A stretch of DNA of 64,000 nt. It comes from an uncultured Flavobacteriales bacterium (GTDB lineage Bacteria > Bacteroidota > Bacteroidia > Palsa-965). The stretch lies in NCBI GenBank assembly GCA_903873905.1, contig CAIQQJ010000131.1, positions 22,729 through 86,728 of the forward strand, in the 5' to 3' direction. Shown piece by piece: positions 1 through 38,477 of this stretch. The position numbers and the translations under genes were made by a program. Under the pieces are notes generated by a model. The model saw only the letters and a program-made list of their open reading frames with translations, had not been told where the DNA came from and made no database searches. Each line of letters begins with the position of its first letter. The first letter of the stretch is position 1.

Positions 1-185
1 CTACGGTAACAGAATTTGCAGTTGTATCCGTATTGGTAATATAGGTGTCACCAAGGCGTGGAAGATCAGCAGAAGTAATTGTGATTTGCGCTTCCAATGC
101 GGAAGCAAAAAAAACGGCGCAGAAAAGAAAAAATATATTTCTCATTATTTTTTTACTTAAATCACAATTTAAATCTTCTATTCTA

Positions 186-1025
186 TCAAACAGCAACAGC
201 TTTTTTCTCTTGGAGTTTCAAATGTCTAAAACCACCCCATAAAGCAGCTCCAATTGCTCCAGAATAAATTGCATCAGGATGAGTTTTTATTACAAAAGTT
301 TTTCCTGTTTCATCAAGTTGTTCTTGGATTGCCTGCATCATTCCTTTGTTCAAAGCCATTCCACCTGTAAGAATAATTGGTGACTCTGCTTTCAATGAAC
401 TTAGAAGTTTGATAATCCTTCCAGCAATTGACAAGTGAATTCCTTTGATAATATTTGGAGTAGAAATTCCACGCGATACCATGTTGATTACATCCGTTTC
501 AGCAAGTACAGCACAAATTCCAGAAGATATTTCTGGTTCGGCAGCTTGCAAAGAAACTTCACCAACTTCCTCAATAGATAAACCAAGATATCTGGAAATA
601 TTTTCAACAAATTGTCCAGAACCAGATGCACATTGTCCTGTCATTTTATAATCCTGAACACGCGCACCTTCTGCAATTTTGATGGCACGCACATAAAGTG
701 CTCCCATATCTACAACACTTTTTGCATCTGGGAAAAAGTAATTTGCGCCTTTTGCATGCGTGGTCATTCCATAAAAATGTCCGCGTTTGCGTCTTACAAG
801 ATCGCCTTCACCAGTAGAGGCAAGATACGCTACGTCCTCATACTTCAAATTATGTTTAGCAAGCATAGCCACAATCAAATCATCGGCAAGCGTTGTCGGA
901 TTTCTTTTGCGGATTTTTTCCGTTTGCTTATCAATAATTTTTGGATTTGATGAATAGTCAACAAGGACTAACTTGATGAAATTACTTCCAACATCAATTC
1001 CCATTGTAAAAAAAGAATTTTCCAT
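186..1025 (-). CDS. BadF/BadG/BcrA/BcrD-family ASKHA ATPase (small ATP-binding/activator subunit, BcrD/HgdC-like)
   Basis: 279-aa ORF. N-terminal GIDVGS phosphate-1 motif. Paired cluster-bridging Cys motifs (QCASGSGQF and ICAVLAETD) equivalent to HgdC Cys127/Cys166. Size matches BcrD (about 280 aa). Confidence 0.8.
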   Translation of the reverse strand: MENSFFTMGIDVGSNFIKLVLVDYSSNPKIIDKQTEKIRKRNPTTLADDLIVAMLAKHNLKYEDVAYLASTGEGDLVRRKRGHFYGMTTHAKGANYFFPDAKSVVDMGALYVRAIKIAEGARVQDYKMTGQCASGSGQFVENISRYLGLSIEEVGEVSLQAAEPEISSGICAVLAETDVINMVSRGISTPNIIKGIHLSIAGRIIKLLSSLKAESPIILTGGMALNKGMMQAIQEQLDETGKTFVIKTHPDAIYSGAIGAALWGGFRHLKLQEKKAVAV

Positions 1026-1029
1026 AGTT

Positions 1030-2175
1030 TTATTTATTTGTCAGCTCAGGTTTATTTATTGATACAATTTCCTTTTTATAAATTACATTTTTTTTCGCCA
1101 GATAATTCACAACAAACTCAAAACACTTCTCCTCCTCACCAATGAATTCAGGAGGACAAATACCTTTCCTCCAAAACATTCCATCCAAAACCAAATGGGC
1201 GGCGGCAGTGCATGTATAACCAGTGGTGCGCGCCATTGAAGAGGTTTGCGTTTCATCATCAAAACTATCATACAGTGTGTAGGTGATTTTCTGTTCGTTG
1301 TCTTCTACTACAACTCGCATGATGGTAAAATCCTTTTCACCGGGTTTCATTTTCCACTTCGGAAAAAGCAATTTGCTGGTAAGTTCGAGTGGAGTAACAT
1401 TCTGTCCATTTATGACAATTGGTTCTTTACTGAAAAGTCCAGTTTCGCGAAAAATTTTCATCAATTCCACATGACCTGGAAAACGCAAAGTTTTTTCCTT
1501 CATGTTTTTCACATCAGGCATGGTGTGTGCCAATGATCGCAGTCCGTCTGAATTGAAAGACTCCAATTCTCCAGTTTCTGGGAATGAAATTTTCACACAA
1601 TCAGATAAAGCTTCTTTGGTAACTAGTTTTCCATCTTCCACATATCGTGCAGGACGAACATATTCCTCAATGACATCTGCAGGAGAAAAAACCGCTTTGT
1701 ATTCGAAAGGCCATTCACGAACAACAGGAAGTCCTCCTACGAGACATTCGTAACCTGTCAATTTCATTTGTTTGTTATGATATCCTGCAATGATATTACA
1801 CATTCCAGGTGCCACACCACAATCAACAACAACAGTTACATTATTTTTTATCGCAAGTTCATTGAGTAAAAAAGGATCTTCAGGAAAAAAAGAAATGTCG
1901 ACGACATTTTTTCCACATGAAATAATATTTTTCAAAACTTCGAATCCCATAAATCCAGGCACTGCACCAATTACCAAATCAAAGGGTGCAACAAGTTTTT
2001 CCAATTCAACTTTATCAAGAAAATTAATTGGAACAACCTTGATTGGAAATCGTGAAGACAGTTCAGAAAGTGAACTCAAATTCATATCCGCACAAGTAAC
2101 TTCAAACGCTTTGCTTAAATCAATTGCAATAGTTTTTCCAATCAAGCCCGCACCCAAGACAAGCACCTTTTTCAT
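1030..2175 (-). CDS. saccharopine dehydrogenase-family NAD(P)-dependent oxidoreductase
   Basis: 381-aa ORF. N-terminal Rossmann motif VLVLGAGLIGK. Overall saccharopine/carboxynorspermidine-dehydrogenase-like length and layout. A 4-nt gap to the downstream BcrD-like gene implies an operon. Confidence 0.6.
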   Translation of the reverse strand: MKKVLVLGAGLIGKTIAIDLSKAFEVTCADMNLSSLSELSSRFPIKVVPINFLDKVELEKLVAPFDLVIGAVPGFMGFEVLKNIISCGKNVVDISFFPEDPFLLNELAIKNNVTVVVDCGVAPGMCNIIAGYHNKQMKLTGYECLVGGLPVVREWPFEYKAVFSPADVIEEYVRPARYVEDGKLVTKEALSDCVKISFPETGELESFNSDGLRSLAHTMPDVKNMKEKTLRFPGHVELMKIFRETGLFSKEPIVINGQNVTPLELTSKLLFPKWKMKPGEKDFTIMRVVVEDNEQKITYTLYDSFDDETQTSSMARTTGYTCTAAAHLVLDGMFWRKGICPPEFIGEEEKCFEFVVNYLAKKNVIYKKEIVSINKPELTNK

Positions 2176-2358
2176 CTTTTGTCATGTTTTTTCCTGTACC
2201 AAAGTAACACTCAAAGACACTCTCTTCTTATGATCACCGTCATATTTCACATTGAAAAATTTAGAATTCCAGATTAATTTTTAATCGATAAAAAATCCAG
2301 CTTTTCATGGGAGATTTTTTGGAAAAATTCATAAAATAGGCTGATTTTTCGATTGGAA

Positions 2359-3105
2359 TTATTGCTTTTCAACCAAGGGGCCATTTATTGCCAATCTGAC
2401 TTCTTCTTCAAGTTGAGTATGGTCTTCCTTTTTCAAGCCAATTGTCATGATTGGTTTGTGAATAATCACTTCGCTGAAGCCAGGACCCGCTTTTCCTTTG
2501 AACATTCCACCAATTCCAAGACGTTTCCAATTACTCACAAACGTAATGGGAAGAATCGGGATTTGTTTTTGAATGGCAATTGCAAATGCGCCAGGCTTGA
2601 ATGGTCCAAGATTCGGTGGATCTTTTGGTCGGGTGCCTTCTGCAAATATCATGAGTGGAATTCCATTATCAATTTCCTGCGACATTCTTTTGATTGCTTT
2701 GAAAGAACCCGCTGTGCTACTTCTATCGACCATGATATTCATTCCAGATGTATAAAAAATATGGAAGAGTGGCCATTTTTCAATTTCCTTTTTTCCCACA
2801 AAAACAAAATATCTGTTGAACAATCGGTAGAGGCAAAATGCATCCATGAAAGAAGTGTGGTTCGGGCAAATGATAAATGATCCTGTTGCGGGAATATTTT
2901 CTTTTCCTTTTACTTTCATGATTATTCCAGCAAAAGCCACCAACAAAAATGCATGGAATTTCATCACGCTAAAGGCTGTCGGAAAACGTTTTGGATTTCG
3001 GAATAAATAAAAGTAGAGCGGAAACATTACCAGCATTACGATTGAAAAAAACAGCAGGTAATAAATTTTGAATATTATCCGAAATGGCGCAAGTAAATAA
3101 TCCAT
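2359..3105 (-). CDS. lysophospholipid (1-acyl-sn-glycerol-3-phosphate) acyltransferase, PlsC family
   Basis: 248-aa ORF. N-terminal TM segment. HX4D block PNHTSFMDAF and FAEGTR block are the diagnostic PlsC motifs. Confidence 0.8.
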   Translation of the reverse strand: MDYLLAPFRIIFKIYYLLFFSIVMLVMFPLYFYLFRNPKRFPTAFSVMKFHAFLLVAFAGIIMKVKGKENIPATGSFIICPNHTSFMDAFCLYRLFNRYFVFVGKKEIEKWPLFHIFYTSGMNIMVDRSSTAGSFKAIKRMSQEIDNGIPLMIFAEGTRPKDPPNLGPFKPGAFAIAIQKQIPILPITFVSNWKRLGIGGMFKGKAGPGFSEVIIHKPIMTIGLKKEDHTQLEEEVRLAINGPLVEKQ

Positions 3106-3160
3106 GACAATCAGGTTCCCTCAATTTTTGACAGCAAAAAAAATGGCAAATAAATAATTA

Positions 3161-4024
3161 TTAAAAAACACTTTTACCATTTTTCATTCCATAAACATGC
3201 TCTTTCACTTTTTGTGCCCACTGCTGGTCGGTATTTTCCTTCGTGAATTTCTCGTATGAAATTGGTGATCCAACAGTTATTTTTATTGCTTTACCTTTTT
3301 GTTTGTACGTTTCATTCACGAGGTAAAACATTTCAATGTTTGCTTTAATCCCCATTGTTTTCCTGAATCGCGCCAGGTTATAAAAAAAGCCACTGTTCTG
3401 CGCATCGATATATACTGGAATTACATCGTGTTTATATTTTATTGCTTTGGTCACAAAACTTTTCTTCCATTCAAGATCTTCGATTTTTCCATTTTGCTTT
3501 CTTGAAACCAAACCTGCTGGAAAAACAATTGTGCAACCTTCAGAAGCATACGATTGGTCTATTTGCGCAATACTCACAGCTGCATTCTTTCCATGCTTGT
3601 TCACAGGAATCATCAGGCTCGCCATGTTTTCAAGATTCATCAAAATGTCATTGACGATTGCCTTCTGATCTGTTCTCCTCTTCCCTACTTCACACATCAG
3701 TGCAATTCCATCGATACCACCAAGAGGATGATTTGCAACAATGATCAGTCCACCTTCTTTCGGAATATTTTCTAAGCCTTCGCTGATCAACACTACTCCA
3801 AAATCTAGAATAGCTGCATCAATGAATTTGTGGTCCATTACATCCTTTGTACGTAACAGAAAATCATTGAATTCATCTTGATGAACAATGCGCTTCATGT
3901 ATGACAATAGGAAACGCGGTAGCCATTTCAGAAGACGCGGATTTTTTCCTCTGATTACTTTTTCAAGATCAATTTGTATTACTTCCCTCGATTTGCTCAC
4001 TTGAAGAATATCATTTTTTTGCAA
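3161..4024 (-). CDS. acyltransferase, divergent PlsC-like lysophospholipid acyltransferase family
   Basis: 287-aa ORF. VANHPLGGIDG block resembles the HX4-5D acyltransferase motif. Later FPAG block. Sits directly upstream of, and co-oriented with, the PlsC gene, like olsB-olsA / glsB-glsA aminolipid pairs. Confidence 0.55.
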   Translation of the reverse strand: MQKNDILQVSKSREVIQIDLEKVIRGKNPRLLKWLPRFLLSYMKRIVHQDEFNDFLLRTKDVMDHKFIDAAILDFGVVLISEGLENIPKEGGLIIVANHPLGGIDGIALMCEVGKRRTDQKAIVNDILMNLENMASLMIPVNKHGKNAAVSIAQIDQSYASEGCTIVFPAGLVSRKQNGKIEDLEWKKSFVTKAIKYKHDVIPVYIDAQNSGFFYNLARFRKTMGIKANIEMFYLVNETYKQKGKAIKITVGSPISYEKFTKENTDQQWAQKVKEHVYGMKNGKSVF

Positions 4025-4098
4025 AAATATTATATCTCCAATAGTAATTGAAGTCTATTGAAAAAACTATGAGGAAATGGAGTGCCTGGATTTTAAGT

Positions 4099-5517
4099 TC
4101 AGGCTACTTCCTTATTCTTCTTCGCCGAAGGTAGATCAACTTTGATATTTCTTCTGGCAAACATTGCTCCACCTAAAGCGCCCATGAAAATGGAATCGGT
4201 ATGGATATTGATTTTTATTCCGTCTCCATAATTTTCCTTCACAAGTTGTCCGAGGTATTTGATAACTGCTGGATTACGAGCAACACCACCTGTGAAAGTA
4301 AATTCGTTGAACACACCACCTGAACGAGCGATTAATGACATAGCCCGCATGATGATCGCTTTGTGCAAACCACCTAAAATATCTTCTCTCTTTTCTCCAA
4401 GGTTTGTCAATTCGCGCAATTCGGCACCAGCAAAAACTGTACAAGTAGAACAGATTGTAACCTCTTTTTCTGCTTGCATCGCCATTGGTCCAAGTTCATT
4501 GAGTGAAATACTCATTTCATCAGCGATGTAACCAAGATATCTTCCGCAACCGGCAGCACAACGATCATTCATTTGGAAACTGGTAACAAGACCATATTTA
4601 TCCACTTGAATTGCTTTGGTGTCTTGTCCGCCAATGTCAAGAACAGTTCTTGTATCAGGGAAAACAGCGTGTGCACCGAAAGCGTGACACAGAATTTCGG
4701 AACGAATGCAATCTTCAGGGAAAGGAAGAAGAGCGCGACCATATCCTGTTCCAGTCATGTTGGTAATATTGAAATCCATCATTGCAACATCATCAATGTG
4801 TTGACGAAGTGAATCTGAAATATTTTCAACTTTTCCTTTCAATAAATTTATTTCTGCATCAAAGTTTACGCTAACATTTTCTGCTGCGGTCTCTGTAAGC
4901 GTATTGTATTTTTCTTTCAAACGATCCATTGATTTATGAATCAATTCAATGAAATCAAAATCAACAGAAATGTTTTCAGCAGGGGTGATACTTTTATCCC
5001 ACACGGTCATCAACGACTCGAATAATTCAGGCCCCAATTTCGCAACTTCTTCATTGTATTTTTCAGAAACAATATCGCGGAAGAATTGATTTTTGCTTCC
5101 AAGATTACCAAACAGATATTCATTCTTAATCCTTGGCTTCATTGATTTACGAATGGCGCGCAAAGCTTCCAAAATAGTATCCTGCATTTCAGGTTTGATA
5201 TAACTCTTGGTAGTTTTTAAAAGCTCCTCACCAAGTTTGTCAATACGAATTCTGAATTGCTCGTATTGAAAAGCATTTTCCAAATCAGAAATATATTTTC
5301 TGTATTCAGGATTAGCTTCCATTTCCTTTTCAAGATTCCTCTTTAGAATGGAAAAGCGTGCATTGTAAACGGCTTCAGCACGAGCAATATCAGCAGCGAC
5401 AGCGTAATTCGCTCTGGTATTTGTAATTCCACGGCCGATGATTTCATCATTCTCATTGATGATTACCGCCTTCGAAGTTGTTGATCCAAGGTCAACACCT
5501 AAATAATATTTATGCAT
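4099..5517 (-). CDS. BadF/BadG/BcrA/BcrD-family ASKHA ATPase (large ATP-binding subunit, BcrA/BadF-like)
   Basis: 472-aa ORF. LGVDLGSTTSK phosphate-1 motif, DIGGQDTK phosphate-2 motif. Cluster-bridging Cys motifs RCAAGCGRYLG and CSTCTVFAGAE. Long inserted helical domain as in BcrA. Confidence 0.8.
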   Translation of the reverse strand: MHKYYLGVDLGSTTSKAVIINENDEIIGRGITNTRANYAVAADIARAEAVYNARFSILKRNLEKEMEANPEYRKYISDLENAFQYEQFRIRIDKLGEELLKTTKSYIKPEMQDTILEALRAIRKSMKPRIKNEYLFGNLGSKNQFFRDIVSEKYNEEVAKLGPELFESLMTVWDKSITPAENISVDFDFIELIHKSMDRLKEKYNTLTETAAENVSVNFDAEINLLKGKVENISDSLRQHIDDVAMMDFNITNMTGTGYGRALLPFPEDCIRSEILCHAFGAHAVFPDTRTVLDIGGQDTKAIQVDKYGLVTSFQMNDRCAAGCGRYLGYIADEMSISLNELGPMAMQAEKEVTICSTCTVFAGAELRELTNLGEKREDILGGLHKAIIMRAMSLIARSGGVFNEFTFTGGVARNPAVIKYLGQLVKENYGDGIKINIHTDSIFMGALGGAMFARRNIKVDLPSAKKNKEVA

Positions 5518-5536
5518 GTTGTTTACTTTTCAAATA

Positions 5537-6841
5537 TTAAACTGTAGCACCTTCTTCTTGTGACATGATGATTTTTCTTTGTTCCAACATTTGGAAATAA
5601 GACTCCAAACGATTCTTGATATTCGCATAGGAGAAATAACGCGGATCAACAAGATCAGATTCTACGAATCCAACTGGCACACCTGAACGCTGTTCAATTT
5701 CTCGCATGATCATCAATTGACCTGCCGAGAATGAATTGCAACTCTTGATTGAATTGATCAAAAAACCATCTGCTTTATATTCTTTTACATAATCAGCCAA
5801 AAGATTTACACGTTGTGGAAGATTCAAATTCGTGTAACAGCCCATGCAATATTTTGCAAGACTCTCCAATGGTTGTTTTGGATCGTGACGGAATCCCATA
5901 TCATAAACTCCACCCACTTTTGTGTAAGATGATGCCACAATTACGGCGCCCATGTCATAAAATATTTTCCAGAATTCGCGGAAGTTGGTCCAGTTTGGAG
6001 GTCCTTCAACTACCAAACGGAATTTTTCTTCTTTGATTTCCCCTTCTGGCGTTACAGGGCCAAGACCGAGTCGCATTCTTTCCTGTACCTCTTTCCAAAG
6101 CTCTTCATAATAATCAACCGCTTCTTGTGTACCACGGAATGCGGTGAAAATTGGTCCGATATAATATACACCAGCGAAATAAGCATCGATTGGTGAAGGA
6201 ACATGTTTCGCACTTTCAAGAATTTTCACAAGAAGATCTTCAGCCTTCGCTGAATTTTCCATCATTTTGGAAAGACGAACCTGGTCATATTTTTTACCAG
6301 ATACCATTTCCATTTTCGGAATAACATCCTCGTTCATTTGCTTCACCATGTATTCTATTTGATCCGTTGTAATTTGTCCATCTTCCTGATAAGGAGTATG
6401 AAGCATTGCAACAGGAACACCTGGATACAACCGTTCAAGATTTTCAAACCATTTCAAGAATGTAAAACATCCTGTGTAACTCAACAGCAACAAATCTGGA
6501 GCTGGAAGTTTTTCACCTGTAGGTCCGACGTTGCCATTCAACATCATTCCGATATCACACTTTACATAAGTGCAAACATCTTCAGAGAATCCAATTTTTT
6601 CAGCATCCTTGATATAGGCCGCTGATTTTTTTCTCATACCTGATTGTAGTGCATTGATTTCTGGATATACGGGAAGCATATCGAATGAAAGAATCAATTC
6701 GGTAAGATTACCTGGTACAAAAGTATAAACCACTTTTTTTCCAAGTTCTTTCGCTTTACCTAAATCTTGAAATTGTTTTGCAAGCATGTCCTTCTGAAGG
6801 ACCATACTTTTTTCTTTTATTGCATCTTGCGGATTAGCCAT
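5537..6841 (-). CDS. benzoyl-CoA reductase / 2-hydroxyacyl-CoA dehydratase family subunit (BcrB/HgdA-B-like)
   Basis: 434-aa ORF with the overall profile of the HgdA/HgdB/BcrB/BcrC superfamily (conserved Cys-containing segments). A 20-nt gap to flanking genes implies an operon. Confidence 0.7.
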   Translation of the reverse strand: MANPQDAIKEKSMVLQKDMLAKQFQDLGKAKELGKKVVYTFVPGNLTELILSFDMLPVYPEINALQSGMRKKSAAYIKDAEKIGFSEDVCTYVKCDIGMMLNGNVGPTGEKLPAPDLLLLSYTGCFTFLKWFENLERLYPGVPVAMLHTPYQEDGQITTDQIEYMVKQMNEDVIPKMEMVSGKKYDQVRLSKMMENSAKAEDLLVKILESAKHVPSPIDAYFAGVYYIGPIFTAFRGTQEAVDYYEELWKEVQERMRLGLGPVTPEGEIKEEKFRLVVEGPPNWTNFREFWKIFYDMGAVIVASSYTKVGGVYDMGFRHDPKQPLESLAKYCMGCYTNLNLPQRVNLLADYVKEYKADGFLINSIKSCNSFSAGQLMIMREIEQRSGVPVGFVESDLVDPRYFSYANIKNRLESYFQMLEQRKIIMSQEEGATV

Positions 6842-6861
6842 TGTAAACTATTTTTTTTGGT

Positions 6862-8025
6862 TTAGGCCCAGAGTTTAATTGAATCAGAAAAAGTTCCGGC
6901 TTGTTCCTTGATGACTTTGAATTGTCCGGTATTTTCGTGGAATTGAAAATTGATGTGAGCAAGTCCTGCTGCATCACATTCTTTTTGCATTTCTGGACGA
7001 TCCAACAATGCTGGATCACAGAAACTAGCTGCGCAGAAAATCACTCCGTCGGCATTACACGCTTCTGCAAGTTTCACCAAACGTTTTCCTTTTGGATTGC
7101 CTACATCATAATAAGCCGATGAAAAAGTACTTTGATTAATGTAAGCCAAAGCCAATGTTTCAAGAGGATTAGCAGTTGTATCGTCAATATCGCCTTGAAT
7201 CCAACGTGAGCCAAGCATCAAGTCATCTTCAACGATATAGCAACCTGCCATTTCAATTGATTTTATCATTCCAATTGGCGGTTGTTCACAGAAAGAACCA
7301 GAAATCACAACACGGATATTATCCATCGGTTCTCCACGCTCTATACTGATTACATCAATAACTTGTTGTAGAATTTTATTGTGCTGCTCTACAGGAATTG
7401 CAAGTCCTGCACGAAGAACATAATACGTATCAACTGCAGATAATCTCCAAGGGAATTCCTGTCTGATTTTATAAATCGCTTCGATCAAACGACGGTTAAT
7501 ATTATAAAGTCCGATTGCTTTATTAATTGCATCAACCGTTACTTTCACACCATTGACTTTGAACATATCGTCAATGATTTTTTCCATTTCCTGTTTGTAA
7601 AAAGTTCCGCCAATTTTTGGATCAAAATTTTGCGGATAATCGAAATAGCGTTGGAAGTTCCCTTTTTTAGAAAGTTTGAACATGCCAGAAAGATTTCTAA
7701 CACAATCGCAAATTGCAGGGAAAAGAAAACCATCAAAATCATTCAGGTTTTTATCCAAAGCCATTTCTATGATGCCACGTGGGAGATGGCATATGTAGGA
7801 TTGATAATAGGCATCACCCTTAATGATTTGTTTTCGATCACCGGCTCCCATAATTCCAACCGGTAATGCCTTGGCGGCGTGCATAATTTCCCGTGGTACA
7901 TAGATTGGCAAATAACCAACAATCATACGATCAGGAGAATCAGCTTTCCATTTTTTTGCTACTTCAAAGTTCAGGTCAAAAGCAAGTGCTTCACATTCTT
8001 TCAGCAGCTGATCAAGCTTATCCAT
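6862..8025 (-). CDS. benzoyl-CoA reductase / 2-hydroxyacyl-CoA dehydratase family subunit (BcrC/BadD-like)
   Basis: 387-aa ORF, HgdB/BcrC-like. It is the first gene of the minus-strand operon; the length matches BcrC (about 386 aa). Confidence 0.7.
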   Translation of the reverse strand: MDKLDQLLKECEALAFDLNFEVAKKWKADSPDRMIVGYLPIYVPREIMHAAKALPVGIMGAGDRKQIIKGDAYYQSYICHLPRGIIEMALDKNLNDFDGFLFPAICDCVRNLSGMFKLSKKGNFQRYFDYPQNFDPKIGGTFYKQEMEKIIDDMFKVNGVKVTVDAINKAIGLYNINRRLIEAIYKIRQEFPWRLSAVDTYYVLRAGLAIPVEQHNKILQQVIDVISIERGEPMDNIRVVISGSFCEQPPIGMIKSIEMAGCYIVEDDLMLGSRWIQGDIDDTTANPLETLALAYINQSTFSSAYYDVGNPKGKRLVKLAEACNADGVIFCAASFCDPALLDRPEMQKECDAAGLAHINFQFHENTGQFKVIKEQAGTFSDSIKLWA

Positions 8026-8187
8026 TTTTCAGAGATATTAATTCCTTTTTATCCTTTTATGGTATCTTAAAATACCAAATTCCACTTTTTTGTGTAACAA
8101 AGTAATCTCCAAATGTCATGATCCACTATGACCTACATCATATTTTAATCATTTCGCTGAAATTAGGTTTACCACAGAAAAATTCAA

Positions 8188-8793
8188 ATGAAACAAGCTA
8201 CTAGTGCTGTGGTTCTTGCGGGTGGAAAATCGGAAAGAATGGGATGCCCAAAACCCTATTTGGACTTTCAGGGCAAGACCTTTATCGAAAAAATCATTGA
8301 AACCTATAAATTGGCGGATGTTGAAAATATTACTGTCGTTTTCAACAAAAACTACATACTTCCAATTTGGAAAAAGCTGTTGAACCATCTAAAATCTGAA
8401 GCAAGGATAATTGTCAACGATAATTCAACTGCTGGCAGATTTCATTCGCTCAAACTCGGATTGGACAACATCACTGAAACAGATTATTGTTTCATACAAA
8501 ATGTCGATAATCCGTTTGTCAGTCCGAGTTTAATAAATACCTTATATGAAAATAAAATCCCAGATGCCTACACTGTTCCTGTTCATGAAAATCATGGTGG
8601 GCATCCGATTCTTATTTCCAAATCAATCATCGATCATATTCGTAAAATTGAAAAATCAGAACTTACATTAAGGGAAATCCTTTCAAATTTCAAACGCAAT
8701 GAAGTGGTTGTAAACGATCCGTCTATTTTGTTCAATATTAATACACCAGAAGATTACAAAAAGTATTCTCTTAACAGCGGATTTTTTCTTTGA
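8188..8793 (+). CDS. molybdenum cofactor nucleotidyltransferase (MobA/MocA family; probably a cytidylyltransferase, given the XdhC and MOP-type enzyme nearby)
   Basis: 201-aa ORF. N-terminal LAGGKSERMG NTP-transferase motif typical of MobA/MocA. Confidence 0.7.
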   Translation: MKQATSAVVLAGGKSERMGCPKPYLDFQGKTFIEKIIETYKLADVENITVVFNKNYILPIWKKLLNHLKSEARIIVNDNSTAGRFHSLKLGLDNITETDYCFIQNVDNPFVSPSLINTLYENKIPDAYTVPVHENHGGHPILISKSIIDHIRKIEKSELTLREILSNFKRNEVVVNDPSILFNINTPEDYKKYSLNSGFFL

Positions 8794-8797
8794 AGCC

Positions 8798-9571
8798 ATG
8801 GAAAATATTTATGACGTGTTGTTGGAAATTCAAAAAGGCAGACGAAAGGCTGCTGTGTGCACCATAGTTCAAACAAAAGGATCTGCTCCCGCAAAAACTG
8901 GAAGCAAAATGATTGTTTATGAGGACAGCAAAATCTGGGGGACAATTGGTGGCGGAAGTCTTGAAAAAAAAGTAATTGAAAATGCAATTGCCGTGATGAC
9001 AAGTGGAAAACCAAATCTGTTTCGTCATGATTTATTGCATCAACATAACATGTGCTGTGGTGGCACCGTTGATATTTTTATTGAGCCAATTATGAAAAAA
9101 AACAAACTCTACATTTTTGGCGCGGGTCATACGGGAGTTGCGCTTGCTAAATTTGCACAACATTTCGGTTTTGAAATTGTCATTATTGATGATCGAAAAG
9201 AATATCTGGATGAAATAAAAATTCCAGAAGTAAATAAAATGAATCTTTCGCACCAAGAAGCCTTACGTGTTTTGCCTTTCGATGAACAGACTTATATCTG
9301 TATCATGACTTACAGTCATCCAATTGACAGGGAAATTTTGGCCTATTGTGTCAACAAGCCCTTCGCTTACCTTGGAATGATCGGAAGCGAACGGAAAGTT
9401 GAAATGACAAAAAAAATGTTCAGTGAAGGACTGAATATTTCCGAAGAAAAACTTTTTGCAATTGATATGCCAATGGGAATTGATATTCTTGCAGAAACTC
9501 CAGATGAAATTGCCATTAGCATTCTTTCAAAATTAATTTCAGTCAAAAATAAAGTCACACATGAAAAATAA
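8798..9571 (+). CDS. xdhC: XdhC/CoxI-family molybdenum cofactor insertion chaperone
   Basis: 257-aa ORF. XdhC_CoxI N-domain and a C-terminal Rossmann-like domain (IFGAGHTGVALAKFA). A 5-nt gap from the mocA-like gene. Confidence 0.75.
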   Translation: MENIYDVLLEIQKGRRKAAVCTIVQTKGSAPAKTGSKMIVYEDSKIWGTIGGGSLEKKVIENAIAVMTSGKPNLFRHDLLHQHNMCCGGTVDIFIEPIMKKNKLYIFGAGHTGVALAKFAQHFGFEIVIIDDRKEYLDEIKIPEVNKMNLSHQEALRVLPFDEQTYICIMTYSHPIDREILAYCVNKPFAYLGMIGSERKVEMTKKMFSEGLNISEEKLFAIDMPMGIDILAETPDEIAISILSKLISVKNKVTHEK

Positions 9572-10298
9572 AATCGCATTAGTAACAGGAGCATCAAAGG
9601 GAATTGGAAAAGCCATTGTAGAAAGATTGGTGAATGAAAATTATTTTGTGCTCGCCATTGATATTGACAAGGAAAATGGAGAACGTCTGCAAAATGAAAT
9701 GGGCAATGATAAAATCCGTTTTATTTCAGTTGACATTTGCGACGAAAATAAAACAACCGAATTATTCAAAACCATTTCTTCAGAATATGGACAGCTTGAT
9801 GTTCTTGTCAATAATGCAGGAATCATAAAAGACAACATGATCTGGAAAATGCCTGTGGAAGATTTTGATGCTGTGATCAATGTAAATCTCAAAGGAACTT
9901 GGTTGATGTGCAGAGAAGCTGCGAAAATGATGAAAAATCAGAATAGCGGAAGAATTGTAAACATTGCATCACGCGCGTGGTTGGGCAATCGCGGGCAAAG
10001 TAATTATTCCGCATCCAAAGCTGGCGTAATTGGTCTTACACGTGTGCTTGCGCTTGAATTGGGGAAATATAATGTTTGCGTAAACGCAGTCGCACCAGGA
10101 TTAATTGACACGCCACTTTCGCAAAAATTGGAAAAGGATGTTTTACAAAAACTGATTGACGCACAACCAACAAGAACAATGGGAAAACCTGAGGATGTTG
10201 CCAACGCAGTCGCATTTCTCGCATCAGAAAAAACCCAATTCATTACCGGCCAAACCATTTATGTTGATGGCGGTAAAAGTATAGGTGCGGGGAATTAA
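9561..10298 (+). CDS. short-chain dehydrogenase/reductase, 3-oxoacyl-ACP reductase (FabG)-like
   Basis: 245-aa ORF. TGASKGIGKAI cofactor motif, NNAG, YSASKAG catalytic motif. Overlaps the xdhC stop by 11 nt. Confidence 0.85.
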   Translation: MKNKIALVTGASKGIGKAIVERLVNENYFVLAIDIDKENGERLQNEMGNDKIRFISVDICDENKTTELFKTISSEYGQLDVLVNNAGIIKDNMIWKMPVEDFDAVINVNLKGTWLMCREAAKMMKNQNSGRIVNIASRAWLGNRGQSNYSASKAGVIGLTRVLALELGKYNVCVNAVAPGLIDTPLSQKLEKDVLQKLIDAQPTRTMGKPEDVANAVAFLASEKTQFITGQTIYVDGGKSIGAGN

Positions 10299-12142
10299 TC
10301 TATTACAATTGGAATAGGAACCTGAATATTGCGGATCATATCCTCCAGTCGTTCCAAATCTTTTCCAAATGAGCCAAGTGCATTTTCAGAAAACAATTTC
10401 ATTTCTGGAATAATATTTTTGTAATACTCTACGCCTTTCAAGAGATTCTCCTTGAACGAATCGAAATACCTCGTTTGTTTCGCTGAAATATTTTCGATGT
10501 GCATATTGATTTCTGCCAGAAAATAATCCACATAAAGAACAAGCTCATTCACAAATAAATTTGGCCTGTTCAATTGGTTTAGAATATTCACTTTTCCATA
10601 AATATGATCCACCATTTCCTTCAGTGAAAAAACACCCGAGAAATATGCCAGATTTGGACCAGGACAAATGCTCACAGCAGTTAGGCTATGGGAGAGTGGA
10701 AGATTGTCTTTTATCAATGTAGAAGCGCCAAGACCTTCGCACAAACATTCCTTCTCTGTAATGAAGTTAAATTGTTTTTCAAATTCCTCTTCAGAAAGTT
10801 TTTGCTCTTTTAGCTGATTGATTTTTTTTGCTTGATATTCTCTTGATGCGGTGCAAATAGGATCAGTGGTGAATTCCGTATTGAACCCAAGAAACTTCTT
10901 GTAACACGGGCTTCCTGGTCTTCCTGCATCTATTCTTGCATTGCGTTGAAGAATGGAAGTGCTTCCTGCAAAATTATTGATTGGAATTCCAAGTGGCGAC
11001 GCATGACTAAGAAAATAATCCTCTTTTTTTGCTTTCACCAATTGATCGAGCGTTCCTTCATCCACATTCGTAGCTTCAGGCACGAGCAAAAATGGACTTC
11101 CCCAACCGCAACCATCTAATTCAAAATATTCGCGTAGGAAACAATCTTCAATTGCCGTTCCAATTCCACCTTGCACCGTGATTTTTGTTTTCAACGGCGA
11201 GCCAAAATTATTTTTGGATTTTTGTTTCAATGCTTCATTACACATCATCCACAATTCCTTCTCCAATTCACTTTTTCTGGATTTGAATTCATCCAAAATC
11301 GGACCAAGCAAAAGTCCTTCTGTGGCAAATGCATGCCCACCACAATTCAATCCTGATTCAATTCTATATTCTGAAATCCACAATCCTTTTTTCGCAAGAA
11401 TTTTCCCTTGAATAAAAGCAGATCTGAAATCACTTACTTTAAGAATTATTTTCTTCTTCAAGTTTCCATTTGCATCAGGCAAAAAATCATCAAATGATTC
11501 GCAATAGGCATAAAGCCTAGGATTCATTCCCGCTGAGAAAACAACAGAAGACGACAAGGTGCTTTGCGCAAATCCACGCAAGGCTGCCATTGCATCCGCA
11601 TATTCAGGTGGAAGAACTTCACCATCATCATCATAATTATTGCGGTCGCATTTTGTCATGATATTAACATCAATATCACCGGCTTTAATCTCTTTCCGCA
11701 ATTGCTGTTGCATAGCAGTTTTCTCGACCCCTTCAGTCAACAACATTTTCTCGTACAACATTTTTACACGAGAACTGCTTGGCAACATTTCAAAATATTT
11801 AACAATGTCTGTTCCTGCTTCAAATTTTTCCAATCTGAGCGCCTCAATTTGTCTCGATAAGATCCTGTCCAATAAATTCAGGTAAGAAGTAATTCGTTTA
11901 GCACGGTGATCAACATCGCTGGTTTCAATTGGGATAAAAGCATCTACTTCTTTTTCATAATAATACTTCCGCACCTTCTCCACCAAATGATCTTCAATGA
12001 TCGAAACAACAGATGAAATTCCATATTTCCCGACTTTAACCGGCGTGTCAATGGTATATCCCAAACCCATCACTGGAATATGGAACGTATGTAGTCCTGA
12101 ATTTGACATTATAGTTTCTTTTTTAGGGGAATGAAACAGCAC
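10295..12142 (-). CDS. hypothetical protein, possibly a large TIM-barrel flavin-type oxidoreductase (family not resolved)
   Basis: 615-aa uninterrupted ORF. Motifs GLNCGGHAF and QGGIGTAIED are reminiscent of FMN TIM-barrel enzymes (NPD/enoyl-reductase/glutamate-synthase-like), but no confident family match. An alternative start at MSNSGL (12109) is possible. Confidence 0.5.
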   Translation of the reverse strand: MLFHSPKKETIMSNSGLHTFHIPVMGLGYTIDTPVKVGKYGISSVVSIIEDHLVEKVRKYYYEKEVDAFIPIETSDVDHRAKRITSYLNLLDRILSRQIEALRLEKFEAGTDIVKYFEMLPSSSRVKMLYEKMLLTEGVEKTAMQQQLRKEIKAGDIDVNIMTKCDRNNYDDDGEVLPPEYADAMAALRGFAQSTLSSSVVFSAGMNPRLYAYCESFDDFLPDANGNLKKKIILKVSDFRSAFIQGKILAKKGLWISEYRIESGLNCGGHAFATEGLLLGPILDEFKSRKSELEKELWMMCNEALKQKSKNNFGSPLKTKITVQGGIGTAIEDCFLREYFELDGCGWGSPFLLVPEATNVDEGTLDQLVKAKKEDYFLSHASPLGIPINNFAGSTSILQRNARIDAGRPGSPCYKKFLGFNTEFTTDPICTASREYQAKKINQLKEQKLSEEEFEKQFNFITEKECLCEGLGASTLIKDNLPLSHSLTAVSICPGPNLAYFSGVFSLKEMVDHIYGKVNILNQLNRPNLFVNELVLYVDYFLAEINMHIENISAKQTRYFDSFKENLLKGVEYYKNIIPEMKLFSENALGSFGKDLERLEDMIRNIQVPIPIVID

Positions 12143-13539: not shown

Positions 13540-13766
13540 TTCGGATTTTTCATCAGCGCAAAAAATGCATTGGTTGTAATGCATGTGTGGAAGTAAATAA
13601 ATCAAGATGGAGAATATCACGTTTGGATGGGAAATCAACTTTGATTGAAGGAATAGAAAAAAAAGGAATTTACATGGCAACTGTTTTTGATGATGAATGG
13701 GAAGCCAATGAACTCGCAGCGAAAAATTGTCCAGTAAAAATCATCCGATTGGAAAAAATAGTATGA
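13536..13766 (+). CDS. small ferredoxin (single-cluster Fe-S protein)
   Basis: 76-aa ORF. CIGCNACVE ... NCP motif (CxxCxxC...CP). Start overlaps the U32 stop (ATGA). Stop overlaps the likely start of the downstream Mo enzyme. Confidence 0.6.
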   Translation: MIRIFHQRKKCIGCNACVEVNKSRWRISRLDGKSTLIEGIEKKGIYMATVFDDEWEANELAAKNCPVKIIRLEKIV

Positions 13767-16561
13767 AACAAATCAACATTAAAATCAACGGAAAAAATTT
13801 CGACCTTCTCGTTGAGGAACACGAAATGCTTTCAAATGTCATTCGTGAAAAGGTTGGCCTTACAGGTACAAAAGTCGGTTGTGAGCAAGGAAGTTGTGGA
13901 GCTTGTACTGTTCTCGTTAACAAGGAACCTGTGCTCAGTTGCATCACTCCTGCTTTGCGTTATGATGGTGCTGAAATTACAACTATCGAAGGCGTTTCCA
14001 AAAATGGAGAACTGCATCGCTTGCAGGAAAAATTTGTGGAGAAAGGTGCGATTCAGTGTGGATTTTGTACTCCAGGAATGATCATCACTTCATTGGATTT
14101 TTTAAGCAAGAATCCGAATCCTACAAAACATGAAATAAAGGAAGCGTTATCAGGAAATGTTTGTCGTTGCACTGGATATAAAAAGATTGTGGAAGCGGTT
14201 GCTGAATACGCCGAAGAAAAGAATTCAGGCAAAATCATCAAAAGAAAAAAAGAAAAAGAAACAGGAACTGTTGGAGTTGGCCGACCATACATTGAGGCAA
14301 CAAAAAAAGTTCAGGGAATTGCTGATTATGCAGACGACTATCAATTCAAAGATGTTTTGCATGTAAAATTTGTAAAAAGTATTTATCCACATGCTCGCAT
14401 TGTAAGTATTGACACTTCTGAAGCTTTGGCAATGGAAGGCGTTCGATATATTGCCACAGGAAAAGAATTGCCAATCACTTTTGGAGTATTGCCTCTTTCA
14501 CAAGATGAAACGGCAATGGCCATTGAAAAAACAAGATATGCTGGAGAAATTGTTGCGGCTGTTGCAGCAGATTCAGAAGAAATTGCAGCACATGCATGCA
14601 AACACATCAAGGTTGTTTACGAACCGCTTAAAGCATTCCTTACCATTGACGATTCCTTGAATGACATTGGTACAGCAGAAAAAATTCACGACACAACAAA
14701 ATTCAATAACAACATTCACAAGAAAGCGGAATTACGCTTTGGTGATCAGCAACAAGGATTGAAAGAAGCTGAAGTTGCATTAAAAATGGATTTTGAAATG
14801 ATTGGCATCAATCATGGTTTTACAGAGCCGCACGCGTCCACAGCATTTTGGGATGAGAATGGTTTGACCATGATTTCTGCAACACAAGTAACACACTACC
14901 TCCATCGCGCACTTGCAAAAACAATGGAAGTTCCATTGAGCAGAGTACGCGTAATCAAACCTGTTCTCGGTGGTGGTTTCGGTGGAAAAAGCGATCCTTT
15001 CGCGCATGAAATTATTGTCGCGCACATTGCAAGAAAAACTGGAAAACCAGTGAAAGTTCGATTGACGCGGGAAGAAGTATTCTTGAACAACCATGGTCGT
15101 CACCCAACAAAAATGACTATCCAATTAGGCGCAAGTAAAGATGGATTTTTGAAAGTGCTTGATGCCGATGTTGCAATTGATGGTGGTGCATACGGAAGTT
15201 TTGGAGTGGTTACATCCTATTACAATGGCGTATTGCTTCAAGCTCCCTACAAGCTGAATAATTTCGGTTTTAAAACCTATCGTGTTTATACCAACAAACC
15301 ACAATGTGGTGCCATGCGCGGACATGGTGCAGTGAATACAAGATTTGCAGTTGAATCGATGATCGATGAAATTGCACATCAAATAAAAATTGATCCTGTC
15401 GAGATGCGAATGAAAAATTTTCTCGATCCGAATTCATTGACAGTTGGTCATTACCGCATCACTTCGAATGGAAGCAGAGAAGCAATTCAAAGAGTGGCAG
15501 AACAATCCGATTGGAAAAACAAACATGGTAAAATGCCGCAAGGTCATGGCTATGGAGTTGCTTGCGGATTTTTCATTAGTGGAAGTGCATTGCCGATCGT
15601 ATGGAATGAATTGCCGCAATCAGTAGTGCATTTGAAAGTTGATTTTGATGGAAGAGTTTTAATTGCTTCTGGCGCGAATGATATTGGACAAGGCAGCGAT
15701 ACCATGCTTGCCATTATTGTTGCAGAGGTACTTGGAATTAGCATGGACAAAACATTTGTAATCGCTGCAGATACATTGATCACACCTGTTGATTTGGGAA
15801 GCTATTCCAGTCGCGTAACATTTATGGCTGGTAATGCAGCAAAAGATGCAGCTGAAAATCTCAAAAAAGAAATTGCAAACTCCATTTCTGTAAAGAAAAA
15901 TATTCCTGTAGAAGAATTGATTTTTTCTGAGAATAGAATTTTCAGCAATGATAAATCGGTCGATCTAAGTTGGGATCAAGCCATTGAAATTTTGACAGCA
16001 AATCGTGGTGCAGTGAATGTGAGTGGAAAATATATTTCTCCAAAATTGGGTGGTGATTTCAAAGGAGCTGGAGCAGGATTAAGTCCATCTTATTCTTTCA
16101 GTTCTTGTGTCGCAGAAGTGAAAGTGGATACAGAAACAGGACATGTGAAAATCATCAATGTTTGGGGTGCTCACGATTGTGGAAAAGCACTAAATCCATT
16201 GGCAGTTGAAGGACAATTGGAAGGCTCTTGGCACATGGGAATCGGGCAAGTGATGACGGAAGAAATGTCATATTACAATGGATTATTGATCAACAATAAT
16301 TTCTTGGATTATAAAATTCCGACAAGTTTGGATACTCCTCCCATTCACACCAACATCATCGAGACGATTGATCCGGAAGGTCCTTTTGGTGCGAAAGAAA
16401 CAGGAGAAGGTGCCATTCATGCAGTATTGCCAGCCATCGCAAATGCAGTCTATGATGCAGTTGGAATTCGAATCACAAAACTTCCAATCAAATCAGAGGA
16501 TGTTTTGAGATTATTGAAAGAAAAAGAAAAAATAAATTCCACTTCAAAAGCTAGTTTATAA
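13763..16561 (+). CDS. xanthine dehydrogenase-family molybdoenzyme with fused N-terminal 2x[2Fe-2S] domain (aldehyde oxidoreductase MOP-like; probably a molybdopterin cytosine dinucleotide (MCD) enzyme)
   Basis: About 930-aa ORF. The ORF track start is 13727; the likely start is MKQINIKINGKNF at 13763. 2Fe-2S motifs CEQGSCGACTV, QCGFCTPGM, CRCTGY. Long aldehyde-oxidase/XDH a/b hammerhead and Mo-binding domains (GGGFGGK, etc.). Architecture as in D. gigas MOP. Confidence 0.85.
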   Translation: MKQINIKINGKNFDLLVEEHEMLSNVIREKVGLTGTKVGCEQGSCGACTVLVNKEPVLSCITPALRYDGAEITTIEGVSKNGELHRLQEKFVEKGAIQCGFCTPGMIITSLDFLSKNPNPTKHEIKEALSGNVCRCTGYKKIVEAVAEYAEEKNSGKIIKRKKEKETGTVGVGRPYIEATKKVQGIADYADDYQFKDVLHVKFVKSIYPHARIVSIDTSEALAMEGVRYIATGKELPITFGVLPLSQDETAMAIEKTRYAGEIVAAVAADSEEIAAHACKHIKVVYEPLKAFLTIDDSLNDIGTAEKIHDTTKFNNNIHKKAELRFGDQQQGLKEAEVALKMDFEMIGINHGFTEPHASTAFWDENGLTMISATQVTHYLHRALAKTMEVPLSRVRVIKPVLGGGFGGKSDPFAHEIIVAHIARKTGKPVKVRLTREEVFLNNHGRHPTKMTIQLGASKDGFLKVLDADVAIDGGAYGSFGVVTSYYNGVLLQAPYKLNNFGFKTYRVYTNKPQCGAMRGHGAVNTRFAVESMIDEIAHQIKIDPVEMRMKNFLDPNSLTVGHYRITSNGSREAIQRVAEQSDWKNKHGKMPQGHGYGVACGFFISGSALPIVWNELPQSVVHLKVDFDGRVLIASGANDIGQGSDTMLAIIVAEVLGISMDKTFVIAADTLITPVDLGSYSSRVTFMAGNAAKDAAENLKKEIANSISVKKNIPVEELIFSENRIFSNDKSVDLSWDQAIEILTANRGAVNVSGKYISPKLGGDFKGAGAGLSPSYSFSSCVAEVKVDTETGHVKIINVWGAHDCGKALNPLAVEGQLEGSWHMGIGQVMTEEMSYYNGLLINNNFLDYKIPTSLDTPPIHTNIIETIDPEGPFGAKETGEGAIHAVLPAIANAVYDAVGIRITKLPIKSEDVLRLLKEKEKINSTSKASL

Positions 16562-17496
16562 TGGTTTCCGAAAAAATTTATGTAAAACCAAAATCTGTTG
16601 AGCAAGCTATAAAAATAGCGAGTCAATACCTTGGTTCATTTCGATACCTCGCAGGTGGAACCGATGTGATCGTGAATAAATATCAGGGAAATGAAGAAGC
16701 GAATTGTTTGATCGATATCACGGAGATCGAAGAATTGAAAAAAGTTTCCATCGATGGTGATTATTTGAAAATTGGATCATTGATAAAATTAGACGATCTG
16801 AAAAAACACGAATCCATTGTCAAATACATTCCCACATTAATTCAAGCGGCTCACGAAGTGGCTTCACCCATATTACGCAAAACGGCTACTATCGGTGGAA
16901 ATATTTTGTGTGAAAACAGATGTTCCTTTTACAATCAAAGTGAATGGTGGAGAGAAGCTGTAGGATATTGTTTGAAATGTGATGGGGAAATCTGCATTGC
17001 AACTGGCGGTAAGAAAAATTGTTTTTCAAAATTTGTTTCCGACACAGCACCTGTGCTCATCGCTTTGAATGCAAGGCTCGAAATTATCGATACCAATGGG
17101 GAATCTACCATTGCGCTTGAAGATATTTATTCAGGCGACGGGATGAATCCAAGAAAGCTAAGTGCAACAGCGTTGATCCGAAATATTCAGATTCCCATTG
17201 GTGAAAAACAGATTTGCATTTTCAAAAAACTCCGTCCACGTGAAGCGGTTGATTTTACATCGCTCACGACAGCTGTTTCACAAAGTGAAATTGGAAGAGT
17301 AAGAATTGTTCTCGGCGGAGTGGATCCTAAACCAATTGTTGTAGAGGGAAAAACAACAGATGATAAAAATGCATTGATCACTTCTGCTGTAAAAAAAGCT
17401 AGAATTGTCGACAATGATGTTTATTCACGTCAATACAGAAAAGAAATGATTTCGGTTTACCTACAAAGAAGTTTCGATGAATTGAAATGGGAATAG
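16561..17496 (+). CDS. FAD-binding subunit of a xanthine dehydrogenase-family enzyme (CoxM/HcrB-like) with a Cys-rich insertion
   Basis: 311-aa ORF. YLAGGTDV and TIGGN FAD-domain motifs. Start overlaps the Mo-subunit stop (ATGG/TAATGG). Six-Cys insert at residues 117-154. Confidence 0.8.
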   Translation: MVSEKIYVKPKSVEQAIKIASQYLGSFRYLAGGTDVIVNKYQGNEEANCLIDITEIEELKKVSIDGDYLKIGSLIKLDDLKKHESIVKYIPTLIQAAHEVASPILRKTATIGGNILCENRCSFYNQSEWWREAVGYCLKCDGEICIATGGKKNCFSKFVSDTAPVLIALNARLEIIDTNGESTIALEDIYSGDGMNPRKLSATALIRNIQIPIGEKQICIFKKLRPREAVDFTSLTTAVSQSEIGRVRIVLGGVDPKPIVVEGKTTDDKNALITSAVKKARIVDNDVYSRQYRKEMISVYLQRSFDELKWE

Positions 17497-18157: not shown

Positions 18158-18589
18158 ATGGAATCGGCAATTTCTTCGTTTATTAATTCACAAACCAATC
18201 TCACGTATTGCACGTGCATTGGAGATGTTCCACATTGTGCAAATTGTTTTTTTGCTTGGAATGAAGAATTGAATGCACTTATTTTTAAGTCTGACAACAC
18301 CACAAGACACATTCAAGAAGCACTGAAAAACAACCATGTCGCAGGAACCATTCTTCCTGATAAATTGGAAAAAGGAAAAATAAAGGGAATTCAATTTTCG
18401 GGAACCTTCCTAATTCCTACAGCTGAAAACCTAAACATCGCTAAAGAAAGTTATTACAATAAATACCCCTTTGCAAGAGTAATCCCAGGAGAAATCTGGG
18501 CAATTCTCCTCGAAGAAATAAAAATGACAGACAACACACTTGGGTTTGGGAAAAAACTTTTGTGGGAACGAAAAAAAGAAAAATTATGA
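18158..18589 (+). CDS. hypothetical protein, possibly of the pyridoxamine 5'-phosphate oxidase-like FMN-binding family
   Basis: 143-aa ORF. Weak resemblance to the PNPOx split-barrel fold. Stop overlaps the start of the downstream lyase (ATGA). Confidence 0.35.
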   Translation: MESAISSFINSQTNLTYCTCIGDVPHCANCFFAWNEELNALIFKSDNTTRHIQEALKNNHVAGTILPDKLEKGKIKGIQFSGTFLIPTAENLNIAKESYYNKYPFARVIPGEIWAILLEEIKMTDNTLGFGKKLLWERKKEKL

Positions 18590-34618: not shown

Positions 34619-34624
34619 GCATAA

Positions 34625-37041: not shown

Positions 37042-37049
37042 TCTTAATA

Positions 37050-38415: not shown

Positions 38416-38419
38416 CCTG

Positions 38420-38438: not shown

Positions 38439-38477
38439 AGATCAAATTTATCGATTCCCGTAAACATAAAAACTGAC

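Follow-up and report, generated by a model that had tools for sequence, protein, structure and literature searches.

A stretch of 64,000 nucleotides from an uncultured Flavobacteriales bacterium (GenBank assembly GCA_903873905.1, contig CAIQQJ010000131.1, positions 22,729 to 86,728; the whole stretch is referred to as the window) carries, at positions 186 to 8025, four genes resembling those of an ATP-dependent class I benzoyl-CoA reductase (BCR), with two acyltransferase genes and a dehydrogenase-family gene between the third and the fourth of them. The question raised by this locus is whether the reductase functions in the anaerobic breakdown of aromatic rings or, as was suggested from the embedded genes in a preliminary description, in a lipid-related or other biosynthetic process. 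The present analysis argues for the former: the four genes are predicted, with a probability of approximately 0.8, to encode a canonical Thauera-type class I benzoyl-CoA reductase (BcrCBAD), and the reductase is, as judged from sequence, one step of a large anaerobic aromatic-ring catabolic cluster in an uncultured, facultatively anaerobic freshwater member of the Bacteroidota.

The four reductase subunits

All seven genes of the locus are intact open reading frames (ORFs) on the minus strand, and the coordinates, sizes, cysteine motifs and gene order (C-B-A, glsA, plsC-like gene, dehydrogenase-family gene, D) in the preliminary description were reproduced in the ORF list of the window and its translations. 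The bcrC gene (6862..8025, 387 amino acids) and the bcrB gene (5537..6841, 434 amino acids) are predicted to encode the non-catalytic HGD-D family subunit of the reductase dimer and the catalytic subunit, respectively, the latter binding the substrate and a [4Fe-4S] cluster; bcrA (4099..5517, 472 amino acids) and bcrD (186..1025, 279 amino acids) encode the large and small ATPase subunits. Only 20 bp separate bcrC from bcrB, and 19 bp separate bcrB from bcrA. The GC content of the locus (36-38%) resembles that of the remainder of the window, and nothing in its composition points to a recent import.

In Pfam, HGD-D (PF06050) was found in the 434- and 387-residue proteins, and BcrAD_BadFG in both ATPases. 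The hidden Markov models (HMMs) of equivalogs were more discriminating: BcrB scored 686.1 bits on TIGR02260 (cut-off, 486.55) and BcrC 449.3 bits on TIGR02263 (benz_CoA_red_C; cut-off, 421.15). For calibration, the same BcrB model was applied to MbdO, which is the catalytic subunit in the structurally solved 3-methylbenzoyl-CoA reductase (MBR); it gave only 219.7 bits, indicating that the enzyme in the window is of the canonical BCR type and not of the MBR or BZD type. The scores on the BZD-type models were lower still: 92 bits on TIGR03191 (BzdO; cut-off, 448.6) and 77 bits on TIGR03190 (BzdN; cut-off, 453.8). The closest solved structure to BcrC is MbdN (9g87_B; 200 bits).

The ligand residues also agree with this assignment. 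Cys90, Cys125 and Cys368 of BcrB align with Cys95, Cys128 and Cys380 of BzdO, and Tyr92 with Tyr97. In BzdO, the three cysteines are the ligands of the [4Fe-4S] cluster, Tyr97 binds the thioester, and His131 functions as the acid/base (PMC11971306).

The two ATPases differ markedly in architecture. BcrA carries RCAAGCG and CSTCTVFAG, and BcrD carries QCASGSG and ICAVLAE; these motifs align with the matching cysteines of MbdQ and are predicted to bridge the two subunits by a [4Fe-4S] cluster. MbdQ aligns to BcrA at residues 3-55 and 250-464 only, and the compact activases MbdQ, HgdC and HadI together cover just residues 3-55 and approximately 240-464 of the 472 residues. BcrA therefore contains an insertion of approximately 195 residues, which is covered by the full-length BcrA model TIGR02259 in an end-to-end alignment (residues 4-454 against positions 3-432 of 432). 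Since BcrA and BcrD are only 28% identical, they are old paralogues and not a recent duplicate of one activator, and this divergence, together with the BcrA-type insertion in the larger protein, supports the reading, made in the preliminary description, of a BCR-type reductase and not a dehydratase. MBR (MbdONQP; 9g87/9gai) and the BZD-type enzyme (BzdNOPQ; 8s02) belong to the same family, with the same architecture and the same three cysteine ligands in the catalytic subunit, but possess two small ATPases (269 and 273 residues) in place of the 472-residue BcrA found here.

Pathway genes and the predicted substrate of the reductase

The window stops 185 bp past bcrD, inside an ORF (1..145, minus strand) that reads as a signal peptide; this is the beginning of a secreted protein bearing a type IX secretion tail, truncated at the window edge. 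An exact-sequence look-up of BcrD led to the NCBI contig JAPLDD010000046.1 (GCA_026391895.1; referred to as L081), which is 99.8-99.95% identical to positions 1-11102 of the window and was treated as the same genome. There, bcrD is followed by a Por_Secre_tail protein, an AMP-forming CoA ligase, an ADP-forming acyl-CoA ligase, a third HGD-D protein, an ApbA/PanE-type reductase, a third activase, a thiolase and a Zn-dependent dehydrogenase. A search of the window itself found none of the genes of this downstream module (second HGD-D type, activase fusion, thiolase and ligases). The lack of CoA ligase, had and oah genes noted in the preliminary description is thus true within the window but does not hold for the genome: with so little sequence left beyond bcrD, the lack of ligase and had genes is an edge artefact, both being present in L081, and oah and dch-like genes were found in relatives, while a 4-hydroxybenzoyl-CoA reductase (4-HBCR)-like enzyme lies inside the window.

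TIGR03201 (dearomat_had) is the model of 6-hydroxycyclohex-1-ene-1-carbonyl-CoA dehydrogenase (Had). The first 265 residues of the Zn-dependent dehydrogenase scored 324 bits on it (cut-off, 338.65), the L081 sequence ending inside the gene, and a full-length relative scored 426 bits. For the genes past had, metagenome loci centred on the Had gene were used. In these relatives, had is followed by genes for Oah (TIGR03200; 600 and 583 bits, cut-off of 464.45), a Dch-like hydratase, a FadB-like protein, and either the alpha and beta subunits of a 2-oxoacid:acceptor oxidoreductase or a glutaryl-CoA-dehydrogenase-like protein.

To place the locus among its relatives, one genome per species was scanned for BcrB; a close relative was found in at least 402 species-level genomes, and the neighbourhoods of the best 80 were studied. 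The synteny counts given here refer to these 80 loci together with the metagenome loci. In 69 loci, bcrD is directly followed by a CoA ligase gene, and a pyruvate:ferredoxin oxidoreductase (PFOR) adjoins the cluster in five. The arrangement is illustrated by L141 (BcrD 91% identical to that of the window), in which a dehydrogenase-family gene, bcrD, a ligase gene, an HGD-D gene, a fused ApbA::activase gene, a thiolase gene, had, oah and dch stand in a row. The CoA ligases do not belong to the benzoate-CoA ligase family, being either similar to the long-chain/FadD type or ADP-forming. In L003, L007, L027 and other loci with an ADP-forming ligase, a small ORF of approximately 150 residues is located between the HGD-D and ApbA::activase genes; it shares homology with the C terminus of the AMP-forming ligase encoded in other loci and looks like a remnant from an exchange of the ligase type.

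A further pathway enzyme is located upstream of the reductase, at 13727..17496 on the plus strand: a 4-HBCR-like molybdenum enzyme consisting of a fused gamma-alpha protein (944 residues) and a FAD beta subunit (311 residues). The best solved relative of the former is 1rm6_A (595 bits; the next match, 344 bits) and that of the latter is 1rm6_B (141 bits), both from Thauera HcrABC. The insertion of the Thauera beta subunit is shared, with all four of its cysteines matched (Cys121, Cys137, Cys145 and Cys154, corresponding to Cys122, Cys138, Cys146 and Cys155 of 1rm6_B), whereas the fusion of gamma and alpha sets the window enzyme apart. In the Thauera structure, these four cysteines bind an extra [4Fe-4S] cluster. 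The molybdenum enzyme probably removes the para-hydroxyl group of 4-hydroxybenzoyl-CoA before ring reduction.

For the electron path, substrate and physiological role, we infer the following scheme, modelled on known class I BCRs (PMC11971306). BcrA and BcrD would form a heterodimeric ATPase holding the bridging [4Fe-4S] cluster, which takes an electron from reduced ferredoxin and, on ATP hydrolysis, lowers its potential; the electron would then pass to BcrBC, in which benzoyl-CoA sits next to the [4Fe-4S] cluster held by the three cysteines of BcrB (PMC11971306). The product would be cyclohexa-1,5-diene-1-carbonyl-CoA. Aromatic acids would enter through the CoA ligases and, when para-hydroxylated, probably through the molybdenum enzyme; the ring would be opened by the Dch-like, Had and Oah enzymes, followed by beta-oxidation by the FadB-like enzyme and thiolase, and reduced ferredoxin would be regenerated by 2-oxoacid:ferredoxin oxidoreductases.

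The third HGD-D protein, the ApbA/PanE-type reductase and the third activase (positions 15823-18756 of L081, just left of the window) constitute a module that is additional to the Thauera and Rhodopseudomonas systems. In most relatives, the reductase and activase are fused (approximately 615 residues), and the module follows bcrD and the CoA ligase gene, beside the thiolase gene, in 48 of the 52 sufficiently long loci; it is also retained in loci with an MBR-like BCR (L134 and L135). The HGD-D protein (407 residues) is 28% identical to BcrB, keeps the three cluster cysteines, and obtains similar scores from the HadB and BcrB models. The module lacks a second HGD-D partner in L081 as well as in L014, L027, L044 and others. 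As a tentative and rather doubtful proposal, the module may represent a single-subunit system for aryl-lactyl-CoA dehydration, so far undescribed, that channels phenylalanine and tyrosine into benzoyl-CoA and 4-hydroxybenzoyl-CoA, by way of arylpyruvate, aryl-lactate, aryl-lactyl-CoA, cinnamoyl-CoA and beta-oxidation. If so, peptide-degrading Bacteroidota and Ignavibacteria would possess a novel way of degrading aromatic amino acids anaerobically, terminating at this reductase.

Several observations weigh against the assignment of a canonical benzoyl-CoA reductase and its pathway. BcrA scored 447.2 bits on TIGR02259, under the cut-off of 578, and thus failed the equivalog, as did BcrA of the relative L105 (413.9 bits); BcrD passed TIGR02261 by only about 4 bits (316.8 against 312.85). 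BcrB has Phe128 at the position of the acid/base His131 of BzdO, the comparison of the BzdO pair Glu65/His131 resting on His131 because Glu65 is not alignable; however, MbdO also has phenylalanine there, so that this residue marks a non-BZD rather than a non-BCR enzyme. The type assignment is based on the HMM equivalogs and the MbdO calibration. In the pathway, the top match of the Dch-like hydratase is TIGR03189, at 221 bits and below the cut-off of 292.5; oah and dch were seen in relatives only, and not in the sequence of this genome; and no ferredoxin gene was seen in the window. Both subunits of the molybdenum enzyme are below the cut-offs of their models: 804.6 bits on TIGR03194 (994.55) for the gamma-alpha protein and 220.1 bits on TIGR03195 (404.55) for the beta subunit. 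Lastly, since the Bacteroidota enzymes of this family are known by sequence alone, the true substrate could be a substituted benzoyl-CoA.

This last point leads to the alternative of a class I reductase acting on a substituted aroyl-CoA, such as 3-hydroxy-, 4-hydroxy-, amino- or methyl-benzoyl-CoA derived, for example, from aromatic amino acids. The weak scores of BcrA and BcrD, the CoA ligases from outside the benzoate-CoA ligase family, the extra HGD-D/ApbA/activase module and a nearby gene of the tryptophanase/tyrosine-phenol-lyase family (18562-19968, plus strand; NF009709, 673 bits) are all in its favour. On the other hand, the subunit that binds the substrate, BcrB, exceeds its cut-off by a wide margin on a model on which the methylbenzoyl-CoA enzyme reaches only 220 bits, Had and Oah of the relatives pass their equivalogs, and a 4-HBCR-like enzyme would first turn 4-hydroxybenzoyl-CoA into benzoyl-CoA. 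We therefore consider a substituted substrate to be unlikely, and benzoyl-CoA the predicted one.

Genes inserted between bcrA and bcrD

The three genes that separate bcrA from bcrD are glsA (3161..4024, 287 amino acids), a plsC-like gene for 1-acylglycerol-3-phosphate acyltransferase (2359..3105, 248 amino acids) and a gene for a saccharopine-dehydrogenase-family NAD(P) oxidoreductase (1030..2175, 381 amino acids), all on the minus strand. Pfam detected Acyltransferase in the former two and Sacchrp_dh (PF16653 and PF03435) in the third. The 287-residue protein scored 357.7 bits on NF053697, the GlsA equivalog (cut-off, 260), and is an ordinary (lyso-)glycine-lipid O-acyltransferase; the PlsC-like protein scored 108.6 bits on TIGR00530 (cut-off, 102.95). 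On the near-identical contig, the glsA start was called at the equivalent of position 4000 of the window. The counts of sigma-70-like and terminator-like sequences were within approximately 1-1.5 standard deviations of the shuffle means, and a scan for the Bacteroidetes motif TAnnTTTG revealed no enrichment; one copy, located approximately 22 nt 5' of the likely glsA start, hints weakly at a separate glsA promoter.

From these genes, the suggestion arose that the BCR-like reductase, the acyltransferases and the dehydrogenase act together in producing or modifying a lipid or pigment that contains an aryl or cyclohexyl group. All seven genes are indeed on one strand with short gaps (bcrA-glsA, 74 bp; glsA-plsC, 55 bp; plsC-dehydrogenase gene, 183 bp; dehydrogenase gene-bcrD, 4 bp), and a PlsC-like gene is found inside the cluster, at differing positions, in a few lineages (L058, L010 and L115), the full set of such loci being a handful (L001, L009, L010, L058 and L115). 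Enzymes of the BCR/HAD family can also perform lipid chemistry, as exemplified by plasmalogen synthase PlsAR, which consists of a multidomain PlsA, with fused ATPase and HGD-D, and PlsR (PMC10191378); the window has four separate genes that match the Bcr equivalogs. A comparison with relatives, however, revealed that the insertions are local. The bcrA and bcrD genes are directly adjacent in 62 loci. GlsA and PlsC between them were found in only two of the synteny loci, L081 (this genome) and L009, and in the close relative L001, glsA and plsC follow bcrA and the locus stops before bcrD. In single other loci, the same spot is filled by a PlsC-like gene or by unrelated genes such as those for a histidine kinase or the 615-residue hypothetical protein described below. 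The bcrA/bcrD junction is a variable insertion point.

The dehydrogenase-family gene deserves separate consideration. An automated count found it alone between bcrA and bcrD in seven loci; two or three were missed, and the gene occupies this junction in approximately ten, including those of Ignavibacteria, a recurrence that also speaks for a functional link with the reductase. The saccharopine-dehydrogenase family is large in the Bacteroidota, and a homologue 65% identical occurs in a bcr cluster at the same position, while others of comparable identity (59-63%) occur among unrelated genes. In addition, the NCBI assembly (L081, around position 8917) lacks 77 bp corresponding to positions 2108-2184 of the window; this deletion removes the start codon and the GAGLIG Rossmann motif of the gene, and reflects either variation within the population or a mistake in the assembly. 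The 77 bp are retained in both the window and contig L083. Extra ORFs of 306-386 residues, one of them methyltransferase-like, are found at the bcrB/bcrA or the bcrC/bcrB junction in L001, L010 and L070; by breaking the bcrCBA core in a few relatives, they indicate that the operon tolerates insertions at several junctions.

In view of the junction data, the passing of an ordinary glycine-lipid equivalog by GlsA, and a remainder of the cluster that amounts to a complete catabolic route, a role in lipid or pigment tailoring is highly improbable, and the proposal drawn from the embedded genes was not upheld. Judging from their sequences and synteny, glsA and the plsC-like gene have housekeeping functions and came to lie at a variable site as a lineage-specific insertion, with no predicted part in the reductase reaction. 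The dehydrogenase-family gene is probably a housekeeping insertion as well, its recurrence at the same junction leaving a small doubt about whether it is uncoupled from the reductase.

The remaining alternative, a 2-hydroxyacyl-CoA dehydratase with a duplicated activator, has a next to negligible likelihood: the Pfam families are shared (PF06050 and PF01869) and HadB and HadC are detectable relatives, but the HadB model gave only 199.5 bits (cut-off, 750) and the HadC model 155.5 bits (cut-off, 700), the equivalogs of B, C and D passed, the ATPases are widely diverged, match different equivalog models and include one with a large insertion, and the gene context is one of ring cleavage, all of which agrees with the preliminary description in pointing to a four-subunit ATP-dependent reductase of the BCR type and not to a dehydratase. 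The 2-hydroxyisocaproyl-CoA dehydratase HadBC and its activator HadI (3o3m and 4eht) share with the window proteins the BCR/HAD superfamily, the folds and the ATP-driven injection of electrons, but use one homodimeric activator for a catalytic dehydration. Both the dehydratase and the lipid-tailoring readings were rejected on the basis of HMM scores and synteny.

Upstream genes, host and distribution

Divergent from the bcr genes, domain hits indicate a mocA-like cytidylyltransferase, an xdhC-like maturation factor and a FabG-like short-chain dehydrogenase/reductase (8188..10298, plus strand); MocA is immediately upstream of bcrC in 38 related loci. Next is a conserved hypothetical protein of 615 residues (10295-12142, minus strand) with no match in Pfam, NCBIfam or PDB sequences. 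Its AlphaFold model (pLDDT, 76.9; pTM, 0.80) weakly resembles the FMN-dependent enoyl reductases PfaD, DfnA-ER and MlnA-ER in Foldseek (E-values of 8e-6 to 8e-5; TM-scores of 0.29-0.47). This family is distributed throughout the Bacteroidota, including Runella rosea, and is found near bcr in approximately eight loci and between bcrA and bcrD in L047. A U32-family protein (12295-13539, plus strand), also near the bcr cluster in approximately eight related loci, is most similar to TrhP and UbiU, which are O2-independent hydroxylases, although it does not reach the cut-offs of either. A few relatives (L015, L058 and L096) also have the tryptophanase/tyrosine-phenol-lyase family gene beside the cluster.

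Type IX secretion tails and SprB repeats mark the genome as that of a member of the Bacteroidota. The window also encodes a heme-copper oxidase/NorB-like protein, ScdA and hemerythrin proteins, three Crp/Fnr regulators, a cytochrome c, an NrfD/4Fe-4S pair and a B12-type ribonucleotide reductase, a gene content that fits a facultative or microaerobic lifestyle. The region 33668-42292, a cluster of ScdA/hemerythrin/DUF2249/DUF1858, heme-copper oxidase/NorB-like and Crp/Fnr genes, holds two heme-copper oxidase/NorB-like proteins and three Crp/Fnr-type regulators, and looks like an island related to nitric-oxide handling or denitrification. Such a host had been regarded as unusual for this enzyme; however, facultative anaerobes are where ATP-dependent class I BCRs are typically found, most of the work on these enzymes having dealt with denitrifying Proteobacteria such as Thauera and Aromatoleum (PMC11971306), and there is a precedent in a benzene-degrading nitrate-reducing culture, in which the dominant Flavobacteriales metagenome-assembled genome (MAG) expresses anaerobic benzoyl-CoA degradation enzymes together with peptidases and peptide uptake systems (PMC8099898). 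bcrABCD have also been reported in Krumholzibacteriota, which belong to the same superphylum (PMC10936416). Our literature search found no paper dedicated to a Bacteroidota BCR, only the passing mentions in PMC8099898 and PMC10936416, and none on the MBR structure 9g87. The proteins themselves have already been annotated as benzoyl-CoA reductase subunits by NCBI and JGI.

A library of 50%-identity representatives gave two full-length neighbours (60-62% identity), both unnamed, and a tblastn search of a plasmid collection for reference genes returned only distant HAD-family members (28% identity or less). The best 80 loci are mostly from Bacteroidota or Ignavibacteria MAGs, many of them from groundwater, lakes, peat and wastewater. 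BcrB is 79-90% identical among these loci (L001-L080), and its neighbours are far less conserved (BcrC, 67-81%; BcrA, 70-82%; MocA, 32-47%); the Ignavibacteria copies are as similar as those of Bacteroidia. This pattern suggests strong constraint, transfer of the cluster between lineages, or both.

Thauera aromatica BcrCBAD and Rhodopseudomonas palustris BadDEFG provide the closest comparison. The gene order C-B-A-D is the same, the subunit sizes are near the lengths of the BCR equivalog models (432, 413, 380 and 262 positions), the pairing of a small BcrD with a large, insertion-bearing BcrA is shared, as are the cysteine pairs of the bridging cluster in each, and so is the link to had, oah, dch-like genes and a 2-oxoacid:ferredoxin oxidoreductase. 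In contrast, the present system is found in Bacteroidota and Ignavibacteria in place of Proteobacteria, its BcrA does not reach the cut-off, an adjacent ferredoxin gene is lacking, the CoA ligases come from other families, the HGD-D/ApbA/activase module is additional, and, in this genome, three unrelated genes separate bcrA from bcrD.

The locus is an uncharacterised member of a known enzyme type in a recognisable Thauera-like pathway. The value of this result is mostly corrective, in that the apparent link with lipids reflects a local insertion and the apparent lack of pathway genes reflects the edge of the window. Since a near-complete Thauera-type pathway is widely conserved in Bacteroidota and Ignavibacteria, organisms that are usually seen as degraders of polymers and peptides may have a share in degrading aromatic rings under anoxic conditions, among them the rings of aromatic amino acids and of lignin-derived acids.

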